NCBI GenBank assembly: GCA_964543815.1
Contig: CAZIZG010000002.1
Location: 50,111-114,110 of the forward strand
Direction: 5' to 3'
From: an uncultured Bdellovibrionales bacterium
GTDB taxonomy: Bacteria; Patescibacteriota; Minisyncoccia; Moranbacterales; UBA1568
Length of the DNA stretch: 64,000 nt
Below, in pieces: positions 3,881 to 46,407 of this stretch. The stretch's first letter is position 1, and each line of letters begins with the position of its first letter. The notes below the pieces were generated by a model, which saw nothing but the letters and a program-made list of their open reading frames with translations, was not told where the DNA came from and ran no database searches. The translations under genes and the position numbers were made by a program.

Positions 3881-4534
3881 TTATTCGGTAGCTCTAAATT
3901 TTTCTCCCTTGTAAATCCAGGTCTTTACTCCGATGACTCCATACGTCGTTCGAGCTTCAGTACGAGCAAAATCAATATCAGCACGGAGTGTATGAAGAGG
4001 GATTTTACCGCGAGATAACCACTCACGACGAGACATCTCAGCACCCCCCAGACGGCCAGAAATTTCAATCTTTACTCCTTCTGCCTCTTTGTTACCCTCT
4101 ACCTGATCAAGCATCCCCTTCAGAACTCGACGAAACGGCATACGCTTTTCCAACTGTTCAGCCACCTGCTGGCCAACAAGCATGGCATTGAGCTCCGCAT
4201 TCTTTACTTCCTGAACCTCCACCTTGAGTTCAACTTTCTTGCCGGCAAAGAAACGCTTCTTAATAACACGTGAGAGATCTTCGATACCCGTCCCGCCACG
4301 ACCGATGAGTACACCTGGGCGAGAAGTATGGATAACTAAACGTAAAGCATTGGCCGAACGTTCAATCGTGACACTAGCGATTGCAGCCGCCTTCCATTTA
4401 CCCATGATAAACTCGCGCATTTCAACATCTTTGCGCAATTGTTCTCGGTAGGTCTTTTTACTTTCAAACCAGCGTGATTGCCAGTTAGTCGTAATACCGA
4501 GACGGATGCCAGTTGGGTGTACTTTATTGCCCAT
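3881..4534 (-). CDS. rpsC: 30S ribosomal protein S3
   Basis: Starts [23 protein letters not shown] and carries a KH domain, characteristic of S3. Confidence 0.93.
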
Positions 4535-4556
4535 AATGTGTTACGTGTACTTTAGT

Positions 4557-5093
4557 TTACGAGGATTTTCGCTGAAACATTTTCTTGACCACTTTGCCAC
4601 CAGTTGGCTTCGCTCCCTTTATCATCTCTTTCTTGAGTTCAGGTTTGGCAATTTTTGCTACTCCCTTTTCTTCTTTCTTTTCCTCTGGAGCTTCAAGCTC
4701 AGCAGCCTTTTCAGTCACAACGACTTTCGGTTCTTTCTTGGTGGTACGATTTTTTCCCTCTACTCGCTCTTCAAGAATAATCGTTATATTGGAACCACGC
4801 CGCATGAGTGGAGTAGCACGACCGAAAGCCCGAGGCAACCAACGCTCTAAACGAAGACCATCACCAACCCGAATCGCTTCGATATAGAGATTGTTTTCAT
4901 CCAGACCAAAATTATTCGTAGCATTCGCTACCGCACTAGCGAGTAGGGTAGCAATCGGCTGCGAAGACTTCTTGACCATCTTTGAAAGCTGAACAAAAGC
5001 TTCACGGGTATCAACGCCAACCAGAGCATGCGTAACCAAGCGCACTTTTCGTGGGGCGACTCGTAAGTTATTGAGGGTTGCGTATACTTTCAT
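4557..5093 (-). CDS. rplV: 50S ribosomal protein L22 with a ~65-aa K/E-rich C-terminal extension
   Basis: L22 core MKVYATLNNLRVAPRKVRLV… followed by the low-complexity tail …EEKKEEKGVAKIAKPELKKE…. Confidence 0.88.
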   Translation of the reverse strand: MKVYATLNNLRVAPRKVRLVTHALVGVDTREAFVQLSKMVKKSSQPIATLLASAVANATNNFGLDENNLYIEAIRVGDGLRLERWLPRAFGRATPLMRRGSNITIILEERVEGKNRTTKKEPKVVVTEKAAELEAPEEKKEEKGVAKIAKPELKKEMIKGAKPTGGKVVKKMFQRKSS

Positions 5094-5101
5094 AGCTTCA
5101 A

Positions 5102-5443
5102 TTATTTCTTGGCAGTAGTAGCGGCTTTAGCGGCTTTAGCAGCATCGAGCTCACGCTGCTTAGCAGCGATTTCGATTTCCTTTTGCATCTTACCACCATG
5201 ACGACGGAAAGTGCGCGTTGGAGCAAATTCACCCAGACGATGTCCAACCATTTCTTCCGTGGTAAATACCGGGATAAAATCCTTGCCATTATGAACACCA
5301 AAGGTGAACCCTACCATCTCAGGCGAGATAACGCAAGCACGCGACCAGGTCTTGATAACCGTTCGGTCACCGAGCTTTTTCCCTTCAATCTTTTTCAAGA
5401 CTCTCGGGTCAACGTATGGGCCTTTTTTGAGACTTCGTGACAT
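5102..5443 (-). CDS. rpsS: 30S ribosomal protein S19 with an A/K-rich C-terminal tail
   Basis: Starts [19 protein letters not shown] and contains [13 protein letters not shown]. Confidence 0.92.
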
Positions 5444-5467
5444 AGATTTCTTCTTGTGGATTCAATA

Positions 5468-6295
5468 CTATTTCTTGGTGCGACGACGGACGATATACTT
5501 ATTGCTCTGGTTCTTGCGGCTACGGGTCTTCTTGCCAAGTGCCGGCTTACCCCATGGTGTCTTCGGATGCATACCAATCGGCTGACGTCCCTCTCCACCA
5601 CCGTGTGGATGATCCACTGGGTTCATAGCGCTTCCACGAACATGCGGACGACGATTCTTCCAACGGCTACGACCAGCCTTACCGATACGCTCAGCACTAT
5701 GTTCGAAGTTACTCACCTGACCGAGAGTAGCGTAGCATTCTTTGCTCACTAACCGGATTTCACCAGAGGCCAGTTTAATCTGGGCCATCGGACCATCCAA
5801 GGCCATAAGAACCGCCTGAGAACCGGCGCTCCGAACAATCTGACCACCCTTTCCAATCTTCATTTCAATATTACAAATCGTGGTTCCGGCTGGAATATTC
5901 TTGAGAAGCATGCGGTTACCATTCACCACCGGGACACTTTCCCCGGAAACCACCGTCCCACCCTGCTTCATACCGTCTGTCGCGAGAATATAGCGCTTCT
6001 CTCCATCAGCATAGTGTACCAAGGCAATGAGAGCCGAACGATTCGGATCTTTTTCCAAATGAGCTATCTTACCAGGGATATCAAGCTTGTCCTGGCGAAA
6101 ATCAACCAAGCGATAGCGACGCTTGTGACCACCACCCTGGTGACGCACGGAAATCTTTCCACCCGAACGACCAGCCCGCTTCTTGTGCGGAGCAAGCAGG
6201 GACTTTTCTGGTGCCTTATCGGTTATACCGTCAGGCTTAACAATCGACATATTACGTCGACCGGCATGGTTCTTTTTGTAGATCTTGATGGCCAT
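5468..6295 (-). CDS. rplB: 50S ribosomal protein L2
   Basis: 275 aa with L2 hallmarks (…MNPVDHPHGGGEGR…). Confidence 0.95.
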   Translation of the reverse strand: MAIKIYKKNHAGRRNMSIVKPDGITDKAPEKSLLAPHKKRAGRSGGKISVRHQGGGHKRRYRLVDFRQDKLDIPGKIAHLEKDPNRSALIALVHYADGEKRYILATDGMKQGGTVVSGESVPVVNGNRMLLKNIPAGTTICNIEMKIGKGGQIVRSAGSQAVLMALDGPMAQIKLASGEIRLVSKECYATLGQVSNFEHSAERIGKAGRSRWKNRRPHVRGSAMNPVDHPHGGGEGRQPIGMHPKTPWGKPALGKKTRSRKNQSNKYIVRRRTKK

Positions 6296-6310
6296 AGGAA
6301 TTCTCTCTGA

Positions 6311-6670
6311 TTACATGCCTGCTTTAAACAGCTCGATGGTCTGGCCCTTGGCCACACTGACAATCGCCTTTTTGATTGAGCCCTTCACCCCGACCGTCCG
6401 GTTGCGACCAGAGACCCGCTTCTTGGCCGGCAATCGTACCATATTGACTGCTACAACATTGACGCCGTATACCTCTTCCACAGCGCGCTTCACTGACTTC
6501 TTGGTTGACGTCTTGGTCACTTCAAAAACGTATTTGTTTTCAACATTCATCGCGTAGGACTTCTCGGTAATGCGAGGACGGGACAGTAAACGCTCAGCAA
6601 GCGGGCTCTCTTTGGGAGTAAGCTTGCGTAGCGTCTTCTTTTCTTCAGTTGTCTTATCAAACAAAGCCAT
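6311..6670 (-). CDS. rplW: 50S ribosomal protein L23 with an N-terminal extension
   Basis: L23 core (…ITEKSYAMNVENKYVFEV…VNMVRLPAKKRV…) at the L4-L23-L2 position. Confidence 0.85.
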   Translation of the reverse strand: MALFDKTTEEKKTLRKLTPKESPLAERLLSRPRITEKSYAMNVENKYVFEVTKTSTKKSVKRAVEEVYGVNVVAVNMVRLPAKKRVSGRNRTVGVKGSIKKAIVSVAKGQTIELFKAGM

Positions 6671-6678
6671 ACGGTTGA

Positions 6679-7332
6679 TTATTTCTTGATAACAGTTTCC
6701 CAGGCCGCAAAGCGCTTCTCAAGTACCGCGATAGAAGCTTCAGTCAAAATAACATACTCGTGATCCAGAAGCTGTACAACGTTGAGATTCTCAGTGAGCG
6801 TATGGTCTACCTTAGGAATATTACGCGACATAAGGGAAAAAAGGAGTTCATCGTTCGCGAGAGCAAATGTCACACTCTTACCGTTGGTGCCAAGCGCCTG
6901 AAGGGTCTCAGCAAATAACTTCGTACGCTTCTCAGTATAAGAAAGAGTGTCAAGTACGAGAAGCTTTCCAGCGCGGACCTTTTCAGAAAGAGCAATCATA
7001 ACAGCCTTCTGACGCATTTTGGCAGTCGTGTTTTTGGAAAAGTTACGTTCTTTAGTCGGACCAAAAGTGACACCACCCTTGCGCCACAGCGGACTACGAG
7101 TCGCACCAGCACGAGCACGACCAGTACCTTTCTGACGCCACGGCTTGATACCAGAACCGGAACGTTCGCCACGATCTTTGGTGTGAGCAATAGCCACGCG
7201 AGTGTTCGCCGTCAGAGCAACGTAGACCTGATGAAGAAGCGTATCATTTGCTGGCACAGCAAAAATAGATTCCTTCAAGGCTAATTCCTTAACGTCTGCT
7301 CCTTTAATATTCTTGACGGTAACTTTGGACAT
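6679..7332 (-). CDS. rplD: 50S ribosomal protein L4
   Basis: 217 aa with an L4-like sequence (…KPWRQKGTGRARAG…). Confidence 0.9.
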   Translation of the reverse strand: MSKVTVKNIKGADVKELALKESIFAVPANDTLLHQVYVALTANTRVAIAHTKDRGERSGSGIKPWRQKGTGRARAGATRSPLWRKGGVTFGPTKERNFSKNTTAKMRQKAVMIALSEKVRAGKLLVLDTLSYTEKRTKLFAETLQALGTNGKSVTFALANDELLFSLMSRNIPKVDHTLTENLNVVQLLDHEYVILTEASIAVLEKRFAAWETVIKK

Positions 7333-7341
7333 ACAATTTCG

Positions 7342-7959
7342 TTAGTTCGCACTCATGACTTTGACAATCCGACCACTCACACCAGGTATAGCCCCCTTTA
7401 CTCCGATGAGACCTTCTGCTTCGTTAACATACACTACCGAGAGATTGAGCGCTGTCATATTTTCGCCACCCATACGTCCGGCCATTCGACGACCCTTAAC
7501 CACGTGTTCAGGAAAAGTAGCGCCGATACTTCCAGGCTTGCGGATATCATGTTTGCGTCCGTGACTGGTCATCTGACCACCGAAACCATGGCGCTTCACA
7601 ACGCCCTGAAAACCCTTGGACTTCGTCACACCAGCGACGTTAACGGTATCACCTACAACAAACTGGGCCACACTCATTTCAGTAGCTACCGGAAACTTCT
7701 CGAGTTCCTTGACCAGTACTTGCACTGCTTCGGCACTCTTACCGCGAGTCAATGCTCGGTCGATACGAAACTCTTTGCGCACGGTACTCTTGGCCGTCTT
7801 TTTTGTCTCAAGCTGTACCGCCAAATAGCCATCCTTCTCCAGCGTCCGATTAACCGTTACGGTATTTTTCGCACATTCAATAAGGGTCACGTTCAAAGCA
7901 CCCTTTGCCTCATCAAAGAGCGTTGTCATTCCAAGTTTTTTTCCGATAATGAATTTCAT
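7342..7959 (-). CDS. rplC: 50S ribosomal protein L3
   Basis: Starts MKFIIGKKLGMTTLFDE, the canonical L3 N-terminus. The ORF track offers a start 27 nt further upstream (7986), but the MKF start matches family conservation. No clear SD at either start. Confidence 0.9.
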   Translation of the reverse strand: MKFIIGKKLGMTTLFDEAKGALNVTLIECAKNTVTVNRTLEKDGYLAVQLETKKTAKSTVRKEFRIDRALTRGKSAEAVQVLVKELEKFPVATEMSVAQFVVGDTVNVAGVTKSKGFQGVVKRHGFGGQMTSHGRKHDIRKPGSIGATFPEHVVKGRRMAGRMGGENMTALNLSVVYVNEAEGLIGVKGAIPGVSGRIVKVMSAN

Positions 7960-8098
7960 TGCCGTGACATTTCTGATTACAAACAAAAAACTGGGCTTTC
8001 AAAGCGCGCCAGTTTTCAGATTTCCTGAAATTTGGTTCGCTTAGTATCTTCTTTCGCACCTGCTGTCAGTCAAGAGAGAAGACTTGAACGAGTATTCC

Positions 8099-8434
8099 TT
8101 ACATCTTAATCTCCACATCCACACCGGCAGGAAGATCGAGATTGGTAAGATTGTCTATTGTTTTTGCTGTTGGATTGATGATATCAATCAAACGCTTGTG
8201 CACTCGCATCTCGTATTGATCCCGAGAGTTCTTGTGCACAAAGGTCGAACGATTGACCGTCACTTTGTGAATTTCCGTCGGCAACGGCACTGGGCCAATA
8301 ATCACCGCTCCGGTCCGTTCCGCTGTTTCGACGATCTTGCGCGCAGACTGATCAATCACCTTGTGATCATACGCCTTGATCTTGATTCTGACACGCAGAT
8401 TTTGCGTTGTTTCGGTCTTTTTCATTGCGTTCAT
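8099..8434 (-). CDS. rpsJ: 30S ribosomal protein S10
   Basis: Contains …[20 protein letters not shown]…, the S10 signature. The true start may be the Met three codons in. Confidence 0.92.
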
Positions 8435-8515
8435 TATATTCTATTCTGATCCCTTTTTCAAGAGAACTCTTGTGGGGACGATTCGTATCGTCCACCACTG
8501 GGAGTTACCTCGAAA

Positions 8516-9706
8516 CTACTTGGTAATCTTGGTTGCGACACCGGCACCAACAGTGCGTCCACCCTCGCGGATGGCGAAGCGCATACCCTCTTCCATAGCG
8601 ACCGGAGCCAAGAGCGTAATCTTGAGCTTGACCGTATCACCTGGCATCACCATCTCAGTTCCTTCTGGCAACACCACTTCACCAGTCACGTCAGTCGTAC
8701 GGATGTAGAACTGTGGCTTGTAGCCCTTGAAGAACGGAGTGTGACGACCACCTTCTTCCTTGGAGAGGACGTAAACCTCGCCTTCGAATTCGGTGTGCGG
8801 AGTAATAGAACCGGGCTTGGCCAAAACCTGACCACGCTCCACGTCTTCCTTCTTAATACCACGGATAAGGAGACCGGCGTTGTCACCAGCAGTACCCTTG
8901 TCGAGCTGCTTGTTGAACATTTCGATACCGGTTACTACCGTCTTGGCAGTATCACGAATACCAACAATTTCCACTTCTTCGTTCAGGTTGACGACACCAC
9001 GCTCAATACGGCCAGTCACTACGGTTCCACGGCCTTCAATCGAAAAGATGTCTTCAATCGGCATGAGGAAAGGCTTGTCGAGATCACGAACCGGCTCAGG
9101 AATTTTAGAATCAAGAGCGGCCATCAAATCGAGAATCGGCTTGGCTGCCTCCTCATCAGCGCTCTTCGACTCAAGGGCCTTCAGGGCGCTTCCACGAATG
9201 ATAGCAGCGTTATCACCGTCAAACTCGTATTTGGAAAGGAGTTCACGAACTTCAGCTTCCACGAGGTCGATGAGTTCTGGATCATCCACCATATCAACCT
9301 TGTTCAAGAACACAACAATCGCTGGGACACCTACCTGGCGAGCCAAAAGAATGTGTTCACGAGTCTGAGGCATAGGACCATCAGTAGCAGACACCACGAG
9401 GATGGCACCGTCCATCTGAGCAGCACCCGTAATCATGTTCTTGATATAGTCAGCGTGACCAGGACAGTCAACGTGAGCATAGTGACGAGCATCACTCTCG
9501 TACTCACAGTGAGAAGTCGAGATGGTGATACCACGCTCGCGCTCTTCTGGAGCTTTATCGATCTCATCGACGCTTTTTTCCTTGGCGAATCCCTTCATGG
9601 AAAGGACGTGGAGGATAGCGGCCGTCAGGGTTGTTTTCCCGTGGTCAACGTGACCGATGGTGCCGACGTTTACGTGCGGCTTGGTGCGCTGAAATTGCTC
9701 TGCCAT
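8516..9706 (-). CDS. tuf: Elongation factor Tu
   Basis: 396 aa with [18 protein letters not shown] and NKVD GTP-binding motifs. Confidence 0.97.
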
Positions 9707-27843: not shown

Positions 27844-28473
27844 CTAGTAAATAGAAAAATGACTTACTGGCCACGCCCGAAGTAATACCCGCCCAATAAC
27901 CTTACTCTCGTCAATCGGTCCGAAGGCACGAGAATCATAACTGAACATTCGGTTGTCACCCATAGCAAAGTACTGCTCCTGACCAATCTCCATCCGCGGC
28001 ATATCCTGTGTCAGTACTGACGAACTCAGGTAGGCGCTTTCATCAAGAACAAATCCTTCTGGGTGTTCGGTATTATAGATAATGACCTTGCCCCGCCGAA
28101 TTTCAACAGCCTCGCCTGGTAGACCAATGACTCTTTTAATAAAAAACTCCTCCGTATTCTTCGGAAATCGGAACACCATAACATCCTGACGCTTGATTTC
28201 TTTGAAAGGTTTCACCTGAAAAAAAGATGTGTCACCCAATCCGACGGTAGTCTGTTTGTAGCCAAACTCACTAATGACGAGATACTGCCCATCCTGGAAA
28301 TTCGGCTCCATACTGGAACCTTGCACAAAAAACGGCTGGAACAAAAAAACCCGAACAGGTATAATAATAACTACGGCGAGAAGAAAGACGCGTACCATTT
28401 CCTTGAATAATCCCCCGATACCGAGGTACTCTTCTTCTGGCTCTGCTTCTCCCTTCTTCATCTCTTCGCCCAT
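27844..28473 (-). CDS. lepB: Signal peptidase I
   Basis: N-terminal TM helix, catalytic-Ser box (GSSMEPNF) and box D (GDNRMFSYDSRAFG). Confidence 0.88.
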   Translation of the reverse strand: MGEEMKKGEAEPEEEYLGIGGLFKEMVRVFLLAVVIIIPVRVFLFQPFFVQGSSMEPNFQDGQYLVISEFGYKQTTVGLGDTSFFQVKPFKEIKRQDVMVFRFPKNTEEFFIKRVIGLPGEAVEIRRGKVIIYNTEHPEGFVLDESAYLSSSVLTQDMPRMEIGQEQYFAMGDNRMFSYDSRAFGPIDESKVIGRVLLRAWPVSHFSIY

Positions 28474-37322: not shown

Positions 37323-38237
37323 CTAGGAAGATCTCCGACGCATCAGTATGGCGCCACCAATCCCAAGAACCAGGGTTCCTGTGAAAATCAGGAAGATCAG
37401 CAACGGACGAGGAACCTTACCGAAAACCTGCAAGTATTTCTCGTCGACTCCCTCTGTAACCAACCTTTTCTCTGGAAGGCCCACCGCCAAAATCTTTTGG
37501 TCAAGAACCTCATTATCACTCCCTCGCAGGCTAACAGTCACCTGATTGGCGCAAGTACCCTCAGTCGGAAATGACGCAATCACCGTCTCGGCACCTGAGG
37601 TAACGATTTGTTTTTCCATTAAAACCGCACACTCCTTGCCGCTCATGTCATCCAGCGTTACATGAAGGAAGAGGGTCTTTTCTGAAACTACCGCTTTTGT
37701 TTGGTCGATATTCACTGTAAGCCGAAAACTATCTTGCCAGGCGTACCGTTCCCGATCAAATTTAGCACCAGTTATCCTCGCTTCTGTCTGCCCAACCTCT
37801 ACCGAACCGAGAAGATAGGACTCGTGAGCCAACGCTCGACCTGAACCATTTTCCTGAAGAGAAAACGTGTACTGATACTCTCCTCCTTGAAAGACCGCTG
37901 GGAAAGTAAGCGCGACACTTGCTGTTTCATTTCCTTTGAGCATAACCACACTTCCAGTCGTAGAAAGGTCTCTTCCCTCAAAAACCTGCTTTCCGAGAAT
38001 GAAAGCTGAAAGATCCTTATTTTTATCAGTTGCAGAAACATCACAATGTACCGTCAATGCTTCACCCGAAACCTGAACAAATGCTCCGACGATATCAGTC
38101 TTTGTATTTTCAGGAAGACAATATATAGACACGGGATAATCAACTGGCGCCGACTTGATCCTTTGTAGCGGCACAGCCAACCCCAATACCGTAAGAAACC
38201 CGAGAAAGATGGAGGTTGTGAGATTCCTCTGTTGCAT
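37323..38237 (-). CDS. Secreted surface protein with a C-terminal TM anchor; paralog A of the N-terminal module of the giant ORF
   Basis: Signal peptide (MQQRNLTTSIFLGFLTVLGLA…), a beta-rich body, and a C-terminal TM helix plus basic tail (…LVLGIGGAILMRRRSS). Local similarity (G-K/E-ECA … VSL.GS…VLD) to aa ~300-400 of the 38282..42679 product. Confidence 0.6.
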   Translation of the reverse strand: MQQRNLTTSIFLGFLTVLGLAVPLQRIKSAPVDYPVSIYCLPENTKTDIVGAFVQVSGEALTVHCDVSATDKNKDLSAFILGKQVFEGRDLSTTGSVVMLKGNETASVALTFPAVFQGGEYQYTFSLQENGSGRALAHESYLLGSVEVGQTEARITGAKFDRERYAWQDSFRLTVNIDQTKAVVSEKTLFLHVTLDDMSGKECAVLMEKQIVTSGAETVIASFPTEGTCANQVTVSLRGSDNEVLDQKILAVGLPEKRLVTEGVDEKYLQVFGKVPRPLLIFLIFTGTLVLGIGGAILMRRRSS

Positions 38238-38281
38238 AGCTTTTATATTGAAAATACGACTTATTTAACCCATCCTGTGAC

Positions 38282-41200
38282 CTATGGCGCCACTTCTTTC
38301 CAGTTGTAGTCACAAGAGCGAGTCCCCGGACAATTGATGGTGTTACCACAGCCATCATTAGTAATAACATACTGAGAACCCACGCAGACATTGTCTGTAT
38401 CAGCAGTATGATTGACACAATTATCCGTCGGAACACAAACGTTTGAACATATCGTTCCGTTCCAAAAAAGAGGGATCGCACAGGTAGCACCAACACTTTT
38501 AGTACTGAGTGTTATTCCGTCATGGACGAAAGTAAAGGTATTCCCTCCAGCAGAAACGTGCTTAATTGGTCGGATAACCGTACCCGGGGTAGCTGATGTC
38601 GCTGTACTAAACTCGATACCATCCTGCTGAATTGAGGGAGTCATTGTGAGATTCGAACTCGTCCAAGCAACATAGATATTACACGTTGAAGCACCATTTG
38701 GTATGGTACAAGCCCCATTAGTGAAGTTGGCCGTTGGTACCCCCGCCTCACAAATCCCAAGCGTTGCATTCCATACACCCGCACAAGTCCCACGAACCGT
38801 GACCATATCGCGCGTGGCAAGAGTATCATCACGCAAACGTACCGAATTATTCCCAAATGTTATGGGAAATGCTACGGCCGTACCAGACAGAGCAGTTGAA
38901 TACGTAATATTGCGAGTCCAATTATAGACACTGGCACTCGCCAAATTCTGTGTCCACCAGGTGAAATTGACATCGCACGTTGATTGACCCACGGGAATCG
39001 TACAGCTCGTTGGCCAAGCCGAAAGCATCCCCCCACTTGCCTGGCAAATACCCTGATTCCAGATGAGCGCACCGAAACAAACCGCTGTCATAGTAGCCTG
39101 TTCAAACAATCCTCCCTGATCTCGCAATGTAACCGTGTGAGAGCCGTAATCCAAAGCAACCGGCTGGTTACTCGCTGCTGGATTGTTACTCGTATAGCCC
39201 GTTCCAGAAACTGAGAGTTCGATTGGCGGCACCGCATCGCCGGCAGTTGTCCAGCTCACTCGCCCAGTACAGGTACTATTACCCGCCAAAATAGTACAAC
39301 CTTGAGCCTGAGTAATACCACTCGTTGTTCCCATTCGAAAAGTCACACTGATAGTACCATTAGAAGTAATATTATTAAACGTATACGAACCCGGAGCGCC
39401 AATATTAACCGGGCCGCTCCCCGTATTTACGATAACAGTATCAATAACGTATGGGTAATTTTCTGTAATAGTAAAAGTGCGACTGCTTCCGGCAGGAATA
39501 CCACTGATACTGCCTGAGGGAGAAATGAACCCACCTGAACCAGCCGTAGCAGTAATGGTATAGGTCGTGGGAATAGGTGCGGTGCACGTACCACTATTGG
39601 TACCGACCGGACTACCAGCACCAAGACAGGTCCACTGATAATTAAGCGCTGTGTCAGCCGGTGAATTCGAGTACGTTCCGGAAACACACGTTTCTGCGGT
39701 CACGCCACAGACTCCGTTTATGGTCGTGACACAAGCATTCGGAGCACTCGTATTAACCGCTCCTGACCAACTTGATGACCCGCTTCCATTGGTCGCCCGC
39801 ACGGTATAGCTGTGCGCCGATCCCGCCATGAGACCCGTGTGACTGAAGCTTGAAGTAGCCCCATCATAAATCTGAGTTCCACCGTCGCGGAGCTGATAAC
39901 TGGTAGCGCCGGAAACACTGTTCCAACCAATGTTTATAGTACCACTGCCGCAGGCAGCTGGTGATGCATTAAGCGATGTAGGTGTGCCAGGAATGCCGGC
40001 GGCACAAGCATTCGGAGCATTTGCGTTAACTACCCCCGACCAAGCCGACGATCCGCTCCCGTTCGTTGCTCGTACCGTATAACTATGGGAGGATCCATCA
40101 GTCAGTCCCGTGTGATTAAAGCTCGGAGTGGCCCCATCATAAATCTGAGTTCCACCGTCGCGGAGCTGATAACTGGTAGCGCCGGAAACACTGTTCCAAC
40201 CAATGTTTATAGTACCACTGCCGCAAGCTCCGGGATTTGCTGAAAGCAACGAGGGTGTACCAGGGACACTCACTGCCTTCGCTTCCGTACACGAGGGGGA
40301 ATTAGATCCGCCACCTGAACCCATACAGGTCCAGTTATAGGTAGTAGCGGTATCACCATCCAACCGAGTTGTTCCAGCAACACAATTGTAGTGCGTCGGG
40401 GCACAAACTCCATCTACCCGAGGAGGATTCACGGTGATAGTTGTCGTATCAGTAGCTGTTCCTGCCACATTAGAACAACTGATGGTATAGGTAAATACCC
40501 CGGTCGGTAGACCCGTCAACCTATAATTACTATAGCTCAAGTCACTCCTACTGATACCATTTCCAGAAACCGAGCAACTCGTAGCACTAGTCGAACTCCA
40601 AGTCAGTGCTGCGTTCTCACCCACAGTGATAACGGTACCACTTCCAGCATGTACTACGGAATCCCCTCCCGTTATCACTGAAAATGTTTTTCGCCACCAA
40701 GATTCTTCGACAGACGCGACTGGACCACTTGCTGAAATAGTAGCGGTTGGAGCTACTACTGCTGGATTCACCTGAAGCGTCCGCGTCAATGAGGTAGCCG
40801 ACCCACCGGGGCCCGTACAGGTCACACTCTGTGTGTAGGTCCCAGCGCTCATCGCCGGTGTACTAATTCCAGCATTACTCGTTCCTACATTGCCATTCCA
40901 GATACCTGACCCCGTACAAGAAGTGGCATTCGTTGAGGAGAAAGATATTGATGATGTACTCCCAGCTGTTATAGTAGCGGGATTAAAGGGACTCAGTGTC
41001 ACCGTTGGAGCAGGTGGAGCGGCTATCATAAAATTTAACCGCCCTATATCCATAGACCAGGCCAAATCGGCGCCGGAGCTATTTCTGACGTTGATGACGA
41101 GACGCAACGAAATAAAGTGCCCTCCCGATGACATGCCTCCCGGAATAGCAAATGAGGCATTATAAGGACCAACCACTGTTCCAAAAAATGACATCCCTGA

Positions 41201-42679
41201 AAAGGGCACTTCTACATATCCCCAGGCCGGCAAAGTCTGAGTACCGACTATATCAGCATCGTAGATGGGTCCTGAAAAGTACCCTACCGTTGCAACAGTC
41301 TTTGAAGCTGCCCCCATAGGAGTATCCTTTTCAAAGGTGTACGTCGTTGAAAGTGTCATTGTGTCTCCTGGAACGTATGATGCCTTATCTGAAGATACCG
41401 TAGCTGTTGATGTGACCGCCACTTCACCCATATACATTTGTGTAGTAGACAGGGTCATGGCATGAGTCTGATGCGCTACCCCTATAAGCCCTCCTCCTAC
41501 CACAATAAGAAAAACTCCAACCTTCATGACGCTCGATCGACGGAACAAGGCTCGCCCTCGAAAGAAAACAGCCATGATAACAATGAGTCCCACTATTGCG
41601 TACCCGACCCTTTGTTTGGTAAAAAAAGGAGATGCAACATCCTTCGAGGCATCCTGCGGAAGAAAAAGATTCTGATTCGTCATTTTTTCCAAAGAGAATG
41701 ATTGCTCAATACTATCAAGCACATCACCCGATGAACTAAGCAACGTCACCTCCGCCACACCAGAACGACACGATGCCTGAAATGAAAACTCTGCGACAGC
41801 GCCCATACTATCATTAGTGACATCGGCGCATTCCCCTTGGTCGTGCTTCAAAACAAGGTGTACTCGCAAATCCCTCGTGGGTCGATTAATGGCAACCACC
41901 CCTGACACACTTCCTTCTTTTTGTCCTTTGTACAGAAGGACATTCGCAATTTTACTGGCGGGACCCGGGACCCGAAAACGGAGCACAGAGACCTTTCCTT
42001 GTGTCGTATGAATGATAGCGACATACCCACCAGCGGAAAGTTTTGGCTGCACTACTACAGCCTTGCCGGCCTCTAGATTTACTTTTTCTGATCCTGCCTC
42101 AACACCAAAAAATGATTCTTTGTGATAAATAATATCCAACGTTTCATCTCCTTCTTGAGAAATACAGGAAAAACCACTTTCATTTCCATCAACCGAACAA
42201 GATGCTTTGCTCCCATCTCTTTCGCCAAAATCCCTTTCTGTTACCTTTTGTCTTCCCAAGGGAACACCTCTCTCGGTCTCAGCATATATCCATACTACAA
42301 CTTTACCTTCAAGAGAAACAGGAAAAACGTATGAAAGAGGCATAACCCTTACCTCCCCTTCGTGCAGAGTATCGATTTTTCCAATTGGCATTACATCAAG
42401 AGGATTACCCTCTTCATCCGTTGTAATGATTCCATAGACAATACCATTTTGCTGCCCTCGCCCCCCTAGTACCGAAAATGACCCCTCTACTCCATCTTCC
42501 CGAGATTGGACAGAAACATCTCCAACGTTGACGTCAGCTACCACCGTGGTGTGCTGTGATGATGCAGGAATATCTGCCGGCACTGATTGCATGGCTGTAT
42601 CCTCTGCTCGCACAGAAAAAACACTAAAAGAAAAAACTGCCAGAAGCACGAATCCAAATACAAAACTTCTGAAAATCAT
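38282..42679 (-). CDS. Giant cell-surface protein (~1465 aa from the ATG at 42679): signal peptide, paralog-B module with TM anchor, a second signal-peptide-like segment, then a long Ser/Thr/Gly/Cys-rich body with two tandem Fn3-like repeats
   Basis: The ORF-track version begins at a TTG (42748); the first ATG with a signal peptide is MIFRSFVFGFVLLAVFSFSVFSVRA at 42679. At aa ~385-430 the sequence reads …IVGLIVIMAVFFRGRALFRRSS-VMKVGVFLIVVGGGLIGVAHQTHA…, a TM anchor plus basic tail followed in frame by a signal-peptide-like segment. There is an internal ATG at 41527. Confidence 0.6.
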   Translation of the reverse strand: MIFRSFVFGFVLLAVFSFSVFSVRAEDTAMQSVPADIPASSQHTTVVADVNVGDVSVQSREDGVEGSFSVLGGRGQQNGIVYGIITTDEEGNPLDVMPIGKIDTLHEGEVRVMPLSYVFPVSLEGKVVVWIYAETERGVPLGRQKVTERDFGERDGSKASCSVDGNESGFSCISQEGDETLDIIYHKESFFGVEAGSEKVNLEAGKAVVVQPKLSAGGYVAIIHTTQGKVSVLRFRVPGPASKIANVLLYKGQKEGSVSGVVAINRPTRDLRVHLVLKHDQGECADVTNDSMGAVAEFSFQASCRSGVAEVTLLSSSGDVLDSIEQSFSLEKMTNQNLFLPQDASKDVASPFFTKQRVGYAIVGLIVIMAVFFRGRALFRRSSVMKVGVFLIVVGGGLIGVAHQTHAMTLSTTQMYMGEVAVTSTATVSSDKASYVPGDTMTLSTTYTFEKDTPMGAASKTVATVGYFSGPIYDADIVGTQTLPAWGYVEVPFSGMSFFGTVVGPYNASFAIPGGMSSGGHFISLRLVINVRNSSGADLAWSMDIGRLNFMIAAPPAPTVTLSPFNPATITAGSTSSISFSSTNATSCTGSGIWNGNVGTSNAGISTPAMSAGTYTQSVTCTGPGGSATSLTRTLQVNPAVVAPTATISASGPVASVEESWWRKTFSVITGGDSVVHAGSGTVITVGENAALTWSSTSATSCSVSGNGISRSDLSYSNYRLTGLPTGVFTYTISCSNVAGTATDTTTITVNPPRVDGVCAPTHYNCVAGTTRLDGDTATTYNWTCMGSGGGSNSPSCTEAKAVSVPGTPSLLSANPGACGSGTINIGWNSVSGATSYQLRDGGTQIYDGATPSFNHTGLTDGSSHSYTVRATNGSGSSAWSGVVNANAPNACAAGIPGTPTSLNASPAACGSGTINIGWNSVSGATSYQLRDGGTQIYDGATSSFSHTGLMAGSAHSYTVRATNGSGSSSWSGAVNTSAPNACVTTINGVCGVTAETCVSGTYSNSPADTALNYQWTCLGAGSPVGTNSGTCTAPIPTTYTITATAGSGGFISPSGSISGIPAGSSRTFTITENYPYVIDTVIVNTGSGPVNIGAPGSYTFNNITSNGTISVTFRMGTTSGITQAQGCTILAGNSTCTGRVSWTTAGDAVPPIELSVSGTGYTSNNPAASNQPVALDYGSHTVTLRDQGGLFEQATMTAVCFGALIWNQGICQASGGMLSAWPTSCTIPVGQSTCDVNFTWWTQNLASASVYNWTRNITYSTALSGTAVAFPITFGNNSVRLRDDTLATRDMVTVRGTCAGVWNATLGICEAGVPTANFTNGACTIPNGASTCNIYVAWTSSNLTMTPSIQQDGIEFSTATSATPGTVIRPIKHVSAGGNTFTFVHDGITLSTKSVGATCAIPLFWNGTICSNVCVPTDNCVNHTADTDNVCVGSQYVITNDGCGNTINCPGTRSCDYNWKEVAP
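39735..40285. repeat. Tandem direct repeat (2 copies of a ~273-bp unit) inside the giant surface-protein gene, encoding two ~91-aa Fn3-like modules
   Basis: A near-identical ~100-bp core (…ccccatcataaatctgagttccaccgtcgcggagctgataactggtagcgccggaaacactgttccaaccaatgtttatagtaccactgccgca…) begins at 39859 and 40132. The protein repeats read GTINIGWNSVSGATSYQLRDGGTQIYDG…YTVRATNGSGSS. Confidence 0.85.
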
Positions 42680-42808
42680 ATATAAAAAATGTTTGTTTTC
42701 TTTTTTATACCACAAATATACTCTGTTTCCAAATAATGAGATATCCAACCCTTGCTGTCATCAATGGGATTAAGGAGTAATCTTCTGTTTTGATTTCATC
42801 ATTTTTTG

Positions 42809-42851
42809 AGAAAAAAAAACCGCCACCTTAGAATTTCTTCTAAGTTGGCGG
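42809..42851 (-). terminator. Intrinsic terminator after the GC-rich lipoprotein gene
   Basis: Compound stem CCGCCAC-CTTAGAA-tttc-TTCTAAG-TTGGCGG. On the minus strand it is followed by a run of 9 U. Confidence 0.6.
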
Positions 42852-42865
42852 AAACTGATGGTCAG

Positions 42866-44815
42866 TCAGTTCGGTGCGAGAATGGCCCACGGCTGTGGAC
42901 CCACTCCCGCGATGACACGCTTCACGGCAAGCGTCTGGCGATCAAGTACCGCCACACTGTCACCATCGAACCAGATGTCCTTCCGGGGCAGTGCCACCCA
43001 GACTTCGTTCCCAACCAGAGTCATGCCCATGGGCATATCCCCAGTCATCACCCGTCCGGTTTCCTGAAGCGTCGCTGGATCGTAAGCCACGACATGGGAG
43101 TCGTAGTCACTCACGAGGAGTCGCTTGGTAACCGGATCGATCAGAAGTCGCATGGCATGCTGCCACTGACCCGTAAGCCCCGGCAAGCCACGTGTCACCA
43201 CGTTGCCTGTCGAAAGGGTGATGGTTGAAAGGGTGTTGTCGCCGGAGTTGGCGACAGAGAGCACCCCTCCATCCTCCACCACATCCTGCGGCACCGACCC
43301 CACCGTGAAGGTTCGGCTGATTTGGCAGGATGACTCGCAGCCAAACTCGGTCACCGTACCGGAAGTACCAGCCCGATAACCATCGCGACTCTTATAGGTG
43401 TCTTGCTCACCGTACATACCACTTCTGGCAGCATTGAGCGAGTAGAACTTTCCAGTAGTCGCCGAGTAGTGCAGCCTCATGGAGACCATGTCGGCCGGAA
43501 TGAATCCCGGCCCTGTCTCCAGCCGTTCACCCGTGAGGTGATTAAAGCAGATGACCTTGCCCTGCCAGATATAGGCGTCCGGATACTGATTGCCCAATAT
43601 CACGCACACCTGCGTCGGTGACGAAGCGACACTGTGAATCCCGTGTGCCAGAGCCGGCGCCGGATCAAGCTGGAAGGCTGAGAGCACCACTCCTGTCTCA
43701 CCATCCAGGCGATACAGAAACTGAGCGTACGTGGCCGGCGCAGCGTAGACCACGCCCGCCACCGCACTCCAAGCCAGGTGGCCATTGGTGAACTGGTAGC
43801 TCCCAAGCGCATCGCCCAGGTGTACCGTCCGCGACGCACCCGAGGCCGAGACAATGGAAACGCCCGCCTTGGTCGTGAAGTTTCCCTTCCAATTCCCCAC
43901 AAACACCTGGCCATTGGTTGTGGCCGAGCGAGTAGTGAAACTGAGGGTGGTAGCGGCACTGGGGTAGCCGAGGCTCCCCTGAATGCCGCCGACCGTGAGC
44001 GTATTGCTCGCGCCCATCGGCCAGCGCTCTTCACCCGGGAGACCCGGGAGGATGTTGACGGTCTTCCCCGCACTGTCGCAGGTAACCGTCGCCAACACTT
44101 GACCCATCTTGCCCGTCCCACTGACGCCGGTGCAATTGAGCACCTGGTCGTAGGTCAGGGTGAGCCTGGTCAGTTTGGCAACAACATCCGTTGCACCATC
44201 AGCCGGCACTTGGCGGTCAGCGGTGACAAGCGTCGCTTGCAACAACTTCGGACCGCACAGGGTCGGCTTGACCTGACACTTGAAGTCACCGAGAGCGCCG
44301 AAGCGCACGAGGACATTCCCGGTGTAGGGCCCGATGCCATACACCCCACCGACATCACTGCCGCCGACACGCACGCCCACCAGGTTGCCCCGGTAGTCAC
44401 GGTAGTCATAGGAGTTACCGTCAGCGAGCACGTTGTAGTTCGTGCTCGCCGCACCGACGAAGAGCGACGGGTAGCGTACTGCTGCCCAGTCAAAGAGCTC
44501 GTCGTTACTCACCTGGTCAGTATTGACTGCCAGGGCCTGAGCTCGTCCACCCTGACCGGTCTTGGCCGGGGTGAACCGAATTTCGATGGTCGCCGGAGCG
44601 ACTGAAGGTGGCACTGAGAGCGCCTGAGCCCGTGGCGACCCATCAAAAACGGTACCGCGGTCGACAGCTGACCCAGTGAAGGGGACTGCGACTATGGGCT
44701 TGTCAGTCACAGGAGCAGAGGGAGTAGTGGCTGATCCACCACCTCCACAACCGGAAAGCACCAGAAATGAAACCGCGGCCAGGGCCGCGCAAAGCGTACG
44801 ATAGACCGAGGCCAT
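42866..44815 (-). CDS. Lipoprotein with Ig-like and YVTN/beta-propeller-like repeats; GC-rich, compositionally foreign
   Basis: Lipobox FLVLSGC right after an N-terminal signal, 649 aa. Repeated …DSHVVAYDPATL… and …LLVSDYD… beta-propeller-like segments. Strong SD (GGAGGG) before the ATG, unlike native genes. Visibly high GC with overlapping spurious ORFs in other frames. Confidence 0.65.
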   Translation of the reverse strand: MASVYRTLCAALAAVSFLVLSGCGGGGSATTPSAPVTDKPIVAVPFTGSAVDRGTVFDGSPRAQALSVPPSVAPATIEIRFTPAKTGQGGRAQALAVNTDQVSNDELFDWAAVRYPSLFVGAASTNYNVLADGNSYDYRDYRGNLVGVRVGGSDVGGVYGIGPYTGNVLVRFGALGDFKCQVKPTLCGPKLLQATLVTADRQVPADGATDVVAKLTRLTLTYDQVLNCTGVSGTGKMGQVLATVTCDSAGKTVNILPGLPGEERWPMGASNTLTVGGIQGSLGYPSAATTLSFTTRSATTNGQVFVGNWKGNFTTKAGVSIVSASGASRTVHLGDALGSYQFTNGHLAWSAVAGVVYAAPATYAQFLYRLDGETGVVLSAFQLDPAPALAHGIHSVASSPTQVCVILGNQYPDAYIWQGKVICFNHLTGERLETGPGFIPADMVSMRLHYSATTGKFYSLNAARSGMYGEQDTYKSRDGYRAGTSGTVTEFGCESSCQISRTFTVGSVPQDVVEDGGVLSVANSGDNTLSTITLSTGNVVTRGLPGLTGQWQHAMRLLIDPVTKRLLVSDYDSHVVAYDPATLQETGRVMTGDMPMGMTLVGNEVWVALPRKDIWFDGDSVAVLDRQTLAVKRVIAGVGPQPWAILAPN

Positions 44816-44952
44816 GATGGGCCCTCCATAAAAGTTGATACTAAATTGTCAAAGCCCGCATGGCGGGGTGACTGTGAGACGAGTCAAAAACAAGGGATTA
44901 ACCTGCCTTCTCGTTGTCAACAAAATAGCATTATTAAGCCATTTTGTCAATA

Positions 44953-46230
44953 TTAAAGGAGCTTTTTATAATTATCAGCCCAGTAGAGAATACCATTGAT
45001 GTATGGAGCATAGCTCGTCCCAAGATAGGCTGCGGCTGCCCGTTTCCAGGCCGACCGATTCCCATCATCTACTCCGGGAACCTTATCAAGCTTCAAGGCC
45101 ATCGCCATAACACCATCTGTTAGATTCCAGGGACTGGGTGGATTATGTCCAGTTGCTGAGGCTACCGACGACTTATAAGCGACCCAGGTGTCGGGCATAA
45201 ACTGCGCCACCCCCATAGCCCCACCAGTTCCAATATACCCTTTAGGATTACAGGATACTTTTTGTTTACGATAATCGATATCAAGTTCCTTCGTAATTGT
45301 TTTGAAAATATCACGCCGACGGAGAAAAGTGGCCCAGGCTGTCTTACCAAGTTTCTTTGCTTTATAACTCGCATTCGCTCCATCCTCAACCTGAGCATAG
45401 GTGCAACCTCCAACATTAGCACCGAGGTTTGTTTCCATTTTGAGAACTCCGAATAAAAAACCCTTAGGAACGCCCGTTTTCTTACTGGCAAAATCTACGG
45501 CATCTTCAATATCTTTAGCGTTGTAGGACTTACCAAGTATCTTATTCAAATCACCCTGCAATTCACTCAGTTCTTTTTTTAATCGATTCACCGTGGTAGC
45601 CTGGTCCTCAAGATCATCCTGGACATCATTCTTTGCCACCACCAAATTTTGTTTTTGTTTATTTTGGATAGCAAGCAGCTCTTCGTGATCTTGTTTCGCA
45701 TCTTCTAGTGTCGACTTCTCATCTACAATTTTACTTTTCGTCACATTGATGTCATCGATTATCGAGGCTATCTTTTCCTGCGTTGAGAGCAGACCCTCCT
45801 CATTTTGAAAAAAATGAGTTACATCATCCTGAGAGAGAACAATTTCCACAAGTGGCGTACCATCTGATAGATAGAGCTCCTGCATGAGGCTCCCTAAAAT
45901 TTTCCGTTCCAAGGTAAGTTGATTATCCAAATTGGCAATTTCAGCCTCTTTTTGATCGATGGTCTGACTGGTCTGATTGAGGAGATTCTGCACACGAAGT
46001 ATGGCTGCCTGAGTCGATGTCAGATTGGTCGTAATCTGGTTGAGATTACTTTGGAGAGCGCCATACTTTTTCTCAGCATCCTTCAGTTTCTTTTCCAGTT
46101 TTTCGATATCATCCTGAATCTCGTCCGCTGATTCATCAGCCTGCGCCGGATGAGCATACACACATAAGGAGAGGATTCCAAAAAATCCAAGAAAAAACAG
46201 ACTCAAAAAAGTGGTTTTGATATTGCTCAT
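44953..46230 (-). CDS. Secreted coiled-coil protein with a C-terminal MltB-like lytic transglycosylase domain
   Basis: Signal peptide at the internal Met (MSNIKTTFLSLFFLGFFGILSLCVYAHPAQA). About 230 aa of coiled coil, then …GGAMGVAQFMPDTW…, the MltB/Slt35 signature. Confidence 0.75.
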   Translation of the reverse strand: MSNIKTTFLSLFFLGFFGILSLCVYAHPAQADESADEIQDDIEKLEKKLKDAEKKYGALQSNLNQITTNLTSTQAAILRVQNLLNQTSQTIDQKEAEIANLDNQLTLERKILGSLMQELYLSDGTPLVEIVLSQDDVTHFFQNEEGLLSTQEKIASIIDDINVTKSKIVDEKSTLEDAKQDHEELLAIQNKQKQNLVVAKNDVQDDLEDQATTVNRLKKELSELQGDLNKILGKSYNAKDIEDAVDFASKKTGVPKGFLFGVLKMETNLGANVGGCTYAQVEDGANASYKAKKLGKTAWATFLRRRDIFKTITKELDIDYRKQKVSCNPKGYIGTGGAMGVAQFMPDTWVAYKSSVASATGHNPPSPWNLTDGVMAMALKLDKVPGVDDGNRSAWKRAAAAYLGTSYAPYINGILYWADNYKKLL

Positions 46231-46407
46231 AGTACCATCTAGTATATCATACCCCGGTCTTCGGGGCATTGACACGGATTCACTCTTATTCCATACTAGT
46301 CGAGTTGGTCCTGTTACTTCAGTCAACACTTGGGAATCTCCAAGGGACACTGACCTGACTGGATTAACCCTTTTTTCTAGTTCCTACCAACCAGAGGAGG
46401 TCCCGCT

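Follow-up and report, generated by a model that had tools for sequence, protein, structure and literature searches.

A giant bacterial envelope-protein gene as the apparent fused form of a two-gene module, with a predicted signal peptidase I site at its junction

The stretch of DNA analyzed here, referred to as the window, comprises 64,000 nucleotides (nt) of contig CAZIZG010000002.1 of assembly GCA_964543815.1 (positions 50,111 to 114,110 of the forward strand). Its minus strand carries a giant open reading frame (ORF) in which a transmembrane (TM) anchor, a basic tail and a second signal peptide follow one another in frame with no stop codon. This arrangement was pointed out in an initial annotation of the sequence and was confirmed here as part of a continuous ORF. 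The question raised by the locus is how such a junction is to be read: as an accident of the present genome, as the start of a second protein, as an ordinary pair of membrane segments or as the site at which one precursor is divided in two. Comparison with relatives indicates that a conserved two-gene envelope module is present here in fused form as the giant gene. Its product is probably a precursor that signal peptidase I cuts at the internal signal peptide into two surface proteins, the cleavage itself being a prediction.

The ORF at 38282..42748 is uninterrupted and encodes 1488 amino acids (aa) when read mechanically from a TTG at 42748. ATG 42679 appears to be the better start, as had been proposed, since the N-termini of homologs are colinear with it (M24 of the ORF, e.g., query 7-589 against target 8-604), public gene callers mostly start there and give a 1465-aa product, and transcription from a promoter-like site at 42761..42733 would begin downstream of the TTG. 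The signal peptide read from this ATG, MIFR-SFVFGFVLLAVFSFSVFS-VRA/ED (a slash marks a predicted cut), is of the regular type. Residue numbers below count from ATG 42679 unless marked as ORF numbering, which refers to the 1488-aa mechanical ORF. Hydropathy analysis gave three hydrophobic segments in the giant protein, one at the N-terminus and two at approximately 378-403 and 404-428 (ORF numbering). The junction reads FRRSS-VMKVGVFLIVVGGGLIGVAHQTHA-MTLS at aa 402-434 (ORF numbering) or, with more of its N-terminal side, ...FFRGRALFRRSS-VMKVGVFLIVVGGGLIGVAHQTHA-MTLS... at aa 395-434 (ORF numbering). ATG 41527 encodes M408 (ORF numbering). Assemblies from six different samples agree at the locus with 100% identity, which rules out an assembly error as the cause of the missing stop and shows the in-frame junction to be real. 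The features of the locus are collected in Table 1.

Table 1. Position of the giant gene, its parts and the genes discussed with it (window coordinates).
Feature	Position	Strand	Description
Giant gene	38282..42679	-	1465 aa from ATG 42679; apparent fused form of a bipartite envelope-protein family
N-terminal signal peptide, MIFRSFVFGFVLLAVFSFSVFSVRA/ED	42605..42679	-	aa 1-25; n-, h- and c-regions; V-R-A at -3 to -1
N-module	41693..42544	-	three beta-sandwich domains (aa 46-150, 159-237 and 243-329); AlphaFold2 predicted local distance difference test score (pLDDT) of about 90 there
TM1, VGYAIVGLIVIMAVFF	41561..41608	-	predicted stop-transfer anchor of the N-module; hydropathy, alignment and AlphaFold2 helix 351-378
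Basic loop, RGRALFRRSSVMK	41522..41560	-	net charge +5; predicted cytoplasmic; holds ATG 41525..41527
Internal signal peptide, h- and c-regions, VGVFLIVVGGGLIGVA-HQTHA	41459..41521	-	predicted signal peptidase I site after Ala407
C-domain 1	41012..41458	-	conserved beta-sandwich; follows the junction in every fused form; makes up the body of the separate second gene where the forms are split
C-terminal extension	38285..41011	-	about 909 aa; lineage-variable, Cys-rich; Ig-like/fibronectin type III (fn3)-like repeats
Tandem duplication	40003..40225 / 39730..39952	-	84% nt identity; two fn3-like repeats, aa 819-893 and 910-984
Intrinsic terminator	42811..42851	-	13-bp stem with one internal mismatch, then U9; -19.3 kcal/mol, z = -4.55
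304-aa protein	37323..38237	-	signal peptide, two beta-sandwich domains, TM segment, basic tail; conserved downstream partner of the giant gene
Lipoprotein	42866..44815	-	649 aa; YVTN-type beta-propeller (TIGR02276, 32.1 bits, cut-off 27.85); conserved upstream partner of the giant gene
Coiled-coil and SLT_2/MltB-like lytic transglycosylase domain protein	44953..46350	-	
Type I signal peptidase gene	27844..28473	-	Peptidase_S26, E 3.3e-42

Relatives of the giant protein were sought in an exhaustive HMMER search of 1.84 billion protein cluster representatives using aa 1-597 as the query. This returned 522 matches at E < 1e-3. Dozens of homologs (534-1595 aa, 24-35% identity) matched aa 10-557 in one colinear stretch through the junction. 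Many multi-repeat matches fell on aa 550-597 of the query. Forty-five fused representatives had a common order of signal peptide, N-module, TM1, short basic loop, second hydrophobic segment, x-A-x-A, L-T-L and C-domain 1. The window protein matched the hidden Markov models (HMMs) of the N-module and the C-domain with E 1.6e-104 and E 6.6e-42, respectively. Cysteines 161, 172, 284 and 304 of the N-module fall in conserved alignment columns and are invariant or nearly so across the family. A metagenome scan with the single protein gave no match and one with a 7-sequence alignment matched five loci. L097 and L098 matched identically and L097 alone was analyzed, leaving four distinct metagenome loci, all with the same fused junction. 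L097 was the closest relative found (41% identity).

The residues around the predicted cut were compared among the 45 fused representatives. Position -1 was Ala in 44 and Gly in one, while position -3 was Ala (26), Val (11), Thr (7) or Gly (1). Position -2 was variable and polar (H, S, E, Q, D, N and others), and Pro or Gly was present at -4 to -7 in 36 representatives. The net charge of the loop had a median of +3 and the h- and c-regions of the internal segment together had a median length of 24, the corresponding values in the window protein being +5 and 21. In that protein the internal segment (aa 374-407) has the parts expected of a signal peptide, namely a charged n-region, a 16-aa h-region (VGVFLIVVGGGLIGVA) and a polar c-region (HQTHA), and its T-H-A follows the von Heijne (-3,-1) rule. 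The predicted cut follows Ala407 (430 by ORF numbering) and separates nt 41459 from 41458, within ...GVAHQTHA-MTLS (THA/M), and the C-part would begin with MTLSTTQ (MTLSTTQMYMGEVAV...). The -3/-1 pattern combined with the basic loop matches what is expected of signal peptidase I substrates and of the positive-inside rule, and the second hydrophobic segment thus behaves as the signal peptide it had initially been taken for. An AlphaFold2 model made from a 24-sequence alignment (pLDDT 78.6, predicted TM-score (pTM) 0.72) has the first strand of C-domain 1 starting at approximately residue 407 and shows residues 394-404 as a low-confidence linker (pLDDT < 50). As the -3/-1 residues adjoin this linker, their conservation is not obviously due to the fold.

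Approximately 20 representatives end right after TM1 and a basic tail of 4-10 residues and are referred to as N-only. The DNA around eight of these was inspected. A second gene starts 1-50 nt downstream in six of the eight loci (L007, L089, L090/L091, L102, L105 and L106) and encodes an ordinary N-terminal signal peptide, an AxA motif and C-domain 1 (C-domain HMM E 3e-36 to 3e-7). The AxA ends are KVHA/LTL, HTSA/ITL, KASA/VQY, SASA/ATF, SVHA/LTL and TASA/ATF and stand at the alignment position homologous to the AxA of the fused form. The internal segment of the fused proteins is therefore positionally homologous to a bona fide signal peptide, and it is on these split forms, with their signal peptide, AxA and same C-domain, that the reading of the giant gene as a fused two-gene module is based. 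One of the other two loci stops at the contig edge, with the downstream gene not covered, and the other (L092) has a TrwB-like gene next instead of a C-domain gene.

Gene A of the proposed module would encode three beta-sandwich domains, preceded by a signal peptide and followed by a TM anchor with a short basic tail. Gene B would encode the conserved C-domain 1 between a signal peptide and a variable extension. Fusion would merge the A tail and the n-region of the B signal peptide into a single short basic loop in the cytoplasm. The alignment is consistent with this, the loop RGRALFRRSSVMK corresponding to the tail of N-only proteins followed by the n-region of the internal signal peptide. 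Loss of a stop between two ancestral genes had been one of the initial suggestions, and stop codons (TAA or TAG) do end the N-only genes of the six split loci. The split versions thus speak for a fusion, although not for a recent one, as the fused state is old and shared by at least 45 divergent representatives and by L097. In a rough neighbor-joining tree the N-only forms fell into at least four clusters among the fused forms, a hint of repeated fusion or fission. UGA recoding was ruled out as the source of the split forms, the stops being TAA or TAG. P0111 was considered as a stand-alone C-domain and is in fact a fused gene cut by a contig end. The 188-aa product L092_4418, encoded upstream of the N-only gene, was considered as a split partner; its C-terminal motif is similar but it gave no significant profile match.

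The following sequence of events is proposed. The N-terminal signal peptide would start Sec export of the N-module, TM1 would stop the transfer and the basic loop would be kept in the cytoplasm. The second hydrophobic segment would then re-start export, carrying the remaining 1058 aa across the membrane, and signal peptidase I would cut after the conserved A/V/T-x-A (THA/M here). The predicted products are a 382-aa N-subunit on a TM hairpin and a 1058-aa C-subunit of Ig-like/fn3-like domains, with the C-subunit probably staying attached non-covalently. The topology, with both large domains outside and the basic loop inside, is well supported; the beta-sandwich folds and conserved Cys pairs fit an extracytoplasmic location. 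The Peptidase_S26 gene in the window encodes the enzyme that the proposed cleavage needs. Fusion would guarantee a 1:1 stoichiometry and insertion at the same site, and co-expression of the tightly spaced two-gene versions (1-50 nt) could come close to this. The giant products may assemble with the upstream beta-propeller lipoprotein and the downstream 304-aa paralog into a cell-surface complex whose membrane-proximal base is conserved and whose distal part evolves fast, possibly with an adhesive or structural role. For the family as a whole we lean, with some reserve, toward a widespread and unnamed group of envelope proteins, probably of Patescibacteria-like monoderms, that would be made as polyprotein precursors and split by signal peptidase I into an anchored base and a large distal subunit.

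Several points weigh against a cleaved precursor. The C-subunit has no anchor of its own (no C-terminal TM segment and no LPXTG in the sequence), so its retention after cleavage must be assumed. Uncharged residues number only 16 in TM1 of the window protein. The L-T-L conserved at +1 to +3 forms the first beta-strand, so conservation of the motif is partly structural. Fold searches gave generic beta-sandwich matches only, and the neighbor-joining tree that scatters the split forms among the fused ones carries no support values.

The same family and topology could also yield an uncleaved two-pass hairpin, in which the second segment would be a permanent signal-anchor and the product one 1440-aa polypeptide. 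We consider this a doubtful but real possibility. An uncleaved second segment would explain how the C-part, which lacks another anchor, is retained at the cell. AlphaFold2 places both segments as side-by-side helices (pTM 0.72), and the h- and c-regions (median 24, here 21) reach the upper end of signal-peptide lengths. A signal-anchor, however, would not need the near-invariant Ala at -1, the small residue at -3, the variable -2 position or the Pro/Gly-rich polar c-region, and the split genes have, as the homologous segment, an ordinary N-terminal signal peptide that likewise bears the AxA. The initial annotation had named, as evidence against its own view, an ordinary TM hairpin present in all homologs of a single family, with no detectable similarity between the N-module and the 304-aa protein. 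The hydrophobic pair is indeed conserved within a single family, yet it is not present in all homologs, and similarity between the modules is detectable as described below. A stop codon at the junction of relatives, a further comparison that had been suggested, was found in the six split loci, while the closest relative, L097, is fused.

Internal initiation at ATG 41527, which had also been put forward, would give a separate secreted protein of 1081 aa besides or instead of the full-length product. The in-frame ATG is located exactly at the start of the second signal peptide (MKVGVF...), and clear Shine-Dalgarno motifs are in any case generally wanting among the genes of this locus. Against this, the Met is not conserved: L097 has IVK instead of VMK and only 18 of 45 homologs have a Met in the region. 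No Shine-Dalgarno or ribosome-binding-site-like motif was found upstream of ATG 41527, and the minus strand near it showed no promoter-like site. Internal initiation is considered very unlikely. A recent accident in the present genome (a stop loss, a pseudogene, or two genes joined by an error of assembly or sequencing) has a negligible chance of being correct even though two-gene versions are known from other loci, because the sequence is identical in six assemblies, the fused junction is common to all of the closest relatives (33-41% identity) and the divergent representatives, and the loop has the compact form of merged tail and n-region seen across the family.

The giant gene appears to belong to a new, unnamed family of bacterial envelope proteins. 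Pfam and NCBIfam searches gave no match for the N-module, C-domain 1 or the 304-aa protein, a PDB sequence search found no relative below E 0.007, and literature searches found no description of the family. No LPXTG-like or PEP sorting motif was found in the giant or the 304-aa protein, and no conserved motif precedes TM1 in the family alignment. The C-part contains 34 Cys. Its C-terminal repeats matched Pfam fn3 (PF00041) with 19.6 bits (E 0.0011), below the 25-bit gathering cut-off, and resemble fn3 at the fold level only. Scaffold L004 at first appeared to differ by a 100-bp insertion; this is a scaffold gap of 100 N located exactly at the tandem fn3-like repeat. Two Logan contigs also break there, indicating that the repeat disrupts short-read assemblies.

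Most family members end with a conserved C-terminal strand motif, P-[TS]-V-[ND]-[VIL]-x-F (L007, L089, L090, L102, L105 and L106, and many database proteins such as P0018, P0040, P0017 and P0065). It forms the very C-terminus or is followed by an amphipathic tail of approximately 20 aa, and it stays terminal despite inserted extra domains. The version in the window protein is PTVTLSPF, at approximately 41000..41011, and is followed by the long extension. The motif could retain the C-subunit, either as a docking strand or as a membrane-surface helix. In L099, L100 and L101 a fused giant homolog (1549-1591 aa) has a second family member immediately downstream. The second copy is also fused at the junction in L099 and L101, whereas in L100 the contig breaks off within it. 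Tandem duplication is thus a way in which the family expands.

For enveloped viruses, it is textbook knowledge that signal peptidase processes polyproteins at internal signal peptides. To our knowledge only isolated cases of such processing are known in bacteria. The Bunyamwera virus Gn-NSm-Gc precursor is described as processed at internal signal peptides in the passage of PMC6784171 that cites Shi et al. 2016 (PMC4978261). Going by such descriptions, viral glycoprotein precursors (orthobunyavirus Gn-NSm-Gc as well as flavivirus and alphavirus structural polyproteins) resemble the giant protein in having an ectodomain, a TM anchor, a short cytoplasmic stretch, an internal signal peptide and the next ectodomain in one ORF. 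In the viruses so described, a cut by a host-type signal peptidase gives two membrane-associated surface proteins that work together, an outcome which is predicted for the giant protein. Unlike the viral precursors, the giant gene is chromosomal and bacterial and is flanked by the housekeeping genes recA, rpsF, ssb and gyrB. No sequence relationship or specific fold relationship was found between the two.

A bacterial case is FbcH of Bradyrhizobium japonicum, which was reportedly described by Thony-Meyer et al. in PNAS in 1991 as a cytochrome b-c1 precursor cleaved at an internal signal peptide. Like the giant gene, it is a single bacterial ORF that joins a membrane protein to an internal signal peptide and then to an exported domain, and its parts are separate adjacent genes in other bacteria. 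The giant family also has its parts as separate genes in relatives, namely in the six split loci. FbcH differs in belonging to a respiratory complex of a diderm, in its unrelated sequence and in its upstream part, which is polytopic and not an exported domain with a single anchor. SlpA of Clostridioides difficile is one precursor that gives two non-covalently associated surface subunits in a monoderm cell, which is the outcome proposed for the giant protein. In contrast to the giant protein, SlpA is cut by a dedicated cysteine protease, Cwp84, has no internal TM segment or signal peptide and shows no homology. Surface proteins with Ig-like, fn3 or MG domains (alpha-2-macroglobulin MG domains, fibronectin type III and adhesin repeats) are alike at the domain level only (TM-scores 0.13-0.20), and the giant protein lacks the thioester and bait region of alpha-2-macroglobulin.

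By analogy with these systems the architecture may be regarded as a bacterial variant of a known processing principle. If cleavage by signal peptidase I is correct, the giant family would be a bacterial counterpart of viral glycoprotein-precursor processing. The whole family includes at least 45 fused and approximately 20 split cluster representatives, which serve as natural controls for each other and would allow a direct test of the fusion logic (stoichiometry and co-insertion). In annotation, such ORFs should be kept whole, neither split nor "repaired", and the second hydrophobic segment should not be taken for an ordinary TM segment.

The 304-aa protein encoded next to the giant gene had been described as a paralog of the giant N-module with the same architecture. 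This was upheld by profiles and models, the relationship being remote. Hydropathy analysis gave two hydrophobic segments, at the N-terminus and at 275-300. Four database homologs (37-53% identity) share the signal peptide, conserved Cys, TM segment and basic tail, and two more homologs are encoded directly downstream of the giant homologs in L095 and L096. The local similarity said to be visible between the two window proteins was not recovered by BLASTP, which gave nothing significant (best E 1.6, in the wrong region), but was recovered with family profiles. Using ectodomains only, hhalign gave E 2.8e-5 with five sequences (reversed control E 0.15) and E 2.5e-6 with seven sequences (89% probability, reversed control E 0.054). 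The alignment pairs approximately 97-250 of the 304-aa protein with approximately 199-325 of the N-module and includes a conserved H-x-x-x...G-x-E-C...C...V-S-L...V-L-D motif. A search with the N-module HMM (hmmsearch) matched the 304-aa protein with E 1e-6. The structure model of the 304-aa protein (pLDDT 66.8) has two beta-sandwiches and a TM helix, compared to three beta-sandwiches in the N-module. The protein is best interpreted as a remote paralog of N-module domains 2-3 and not as a recent duplicate. The RRSS tail common to both had been listed among the likenesses and was considered as a mark of recent duplication. It was rejected as such, the codons being different (cgt cga tcg agc and cgg aga tct tcc) and the motif unconserved in either family, and appears to be a coincidence of basic tails.

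The order of transcription on the minus strand is recA, two small ORFs, the coiled-coil/SLT_2 protein, the lipoprotein, the giant ORF, the 304-aa ORF, rpsF, ssb, rpsR, efp and gyrB. The lipoprotein and the MltB-like gene had been placed downstream of the giant gene; on this strand both are upstream (5'). The lipoprotein has FLVLSGC/GGGG at the end of its signal peptide, in which LSGC agrees with the lipobox L-[AS]-[GA]-C. An intrinsic terminator, which a consensus scan had missed, directly follows its stop codon, and its position between the two genes indicates that the giant and small genes form a transcription unit separate from the lipoprotein gene. The product of 44953..46350 matched Pfam SLT_2 with 36.9 bits (cut-off 24.3) over profile positions 71-169 of 292 only, and the NCBIfam MltB equivalog with 26 bits compared to a cut-off of 281. 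It thus appears to be an SLT_2 domain relative and not an MltB ortholog. A LytR_cpsA_psr gene is present near the type I signal peptidase gene.

The order lipoprotein-giant-small was kept in L096 (633/1474/309 aa) and L095 (449/1595/293 aa), and the order SLT-lipoprotein-giant in L097. In addition, the family marks a conserved three-gene envelope module (beta-propeller lipoprotein, bipartite giant protein and small paralog) in poorly understood small-genome bacteria. Identity to L097 was 77% for the SLT protein, 36% for the lipoprotein and 41% for the giant core, so the surface proteins diverge much faster than their neighbor. Such a difference (41% for the giant protein versus 77% for the neighboring gene) would be expected of a surface structure exposed to hosts or phages. 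The lipoprotein/SLT region (42001..46000) had a G+C content of 0.51-0.52 compared to approximately 0.48 in the rest of the window.

Among GTDB representatives, the three relatives closest by GyrB had identities of 82%, 69% and 66% and the labels "Bdellovibrionales", "bacterium" and "Pseudobdellovibrionaceae". The next relatives (up to 59%) carried Patescibacteria/candidate phyla radiation (CPR) labels (Falkowbacteria, Saccharibacteria, Peribacteria and Buchananbacteria) mixed with "Gammaproteobacteria" labels. The bacterium is likely a CPR-like monoderm. An episymbiont-like origin, as initially assumed, is plausible. A scan of GTDB representative contigs with the core protein gave no relative, and the species is therefore not among them. 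No family member was found in 80 GyrB-anchored loci, so synteny with gyrB is not conserved at that distance. Among loci L009-L026, metagenome-assembled genomes (MAGs) labeled "Bdellovibrionales", "Pseudobdellovibrionaceae" and "Gammaproteobacteria" were interleaved with Patescibacteria/CPR MAGs at similar identity. The inconsistent labels suggest mislabeled MAGs or an unplaced lineage.

A different neighborhood was seen in L092 (GCA_020047435.1), where, at 4418..9699, the N-only member is located between the 188-aa secreted protein and a TrwB/VirD4-like coupling ATPase, with an LTD/PKD protein coming next. The arrangement hints at a connection, in that lineage, with an apparatus for DNA transfer or secretion.

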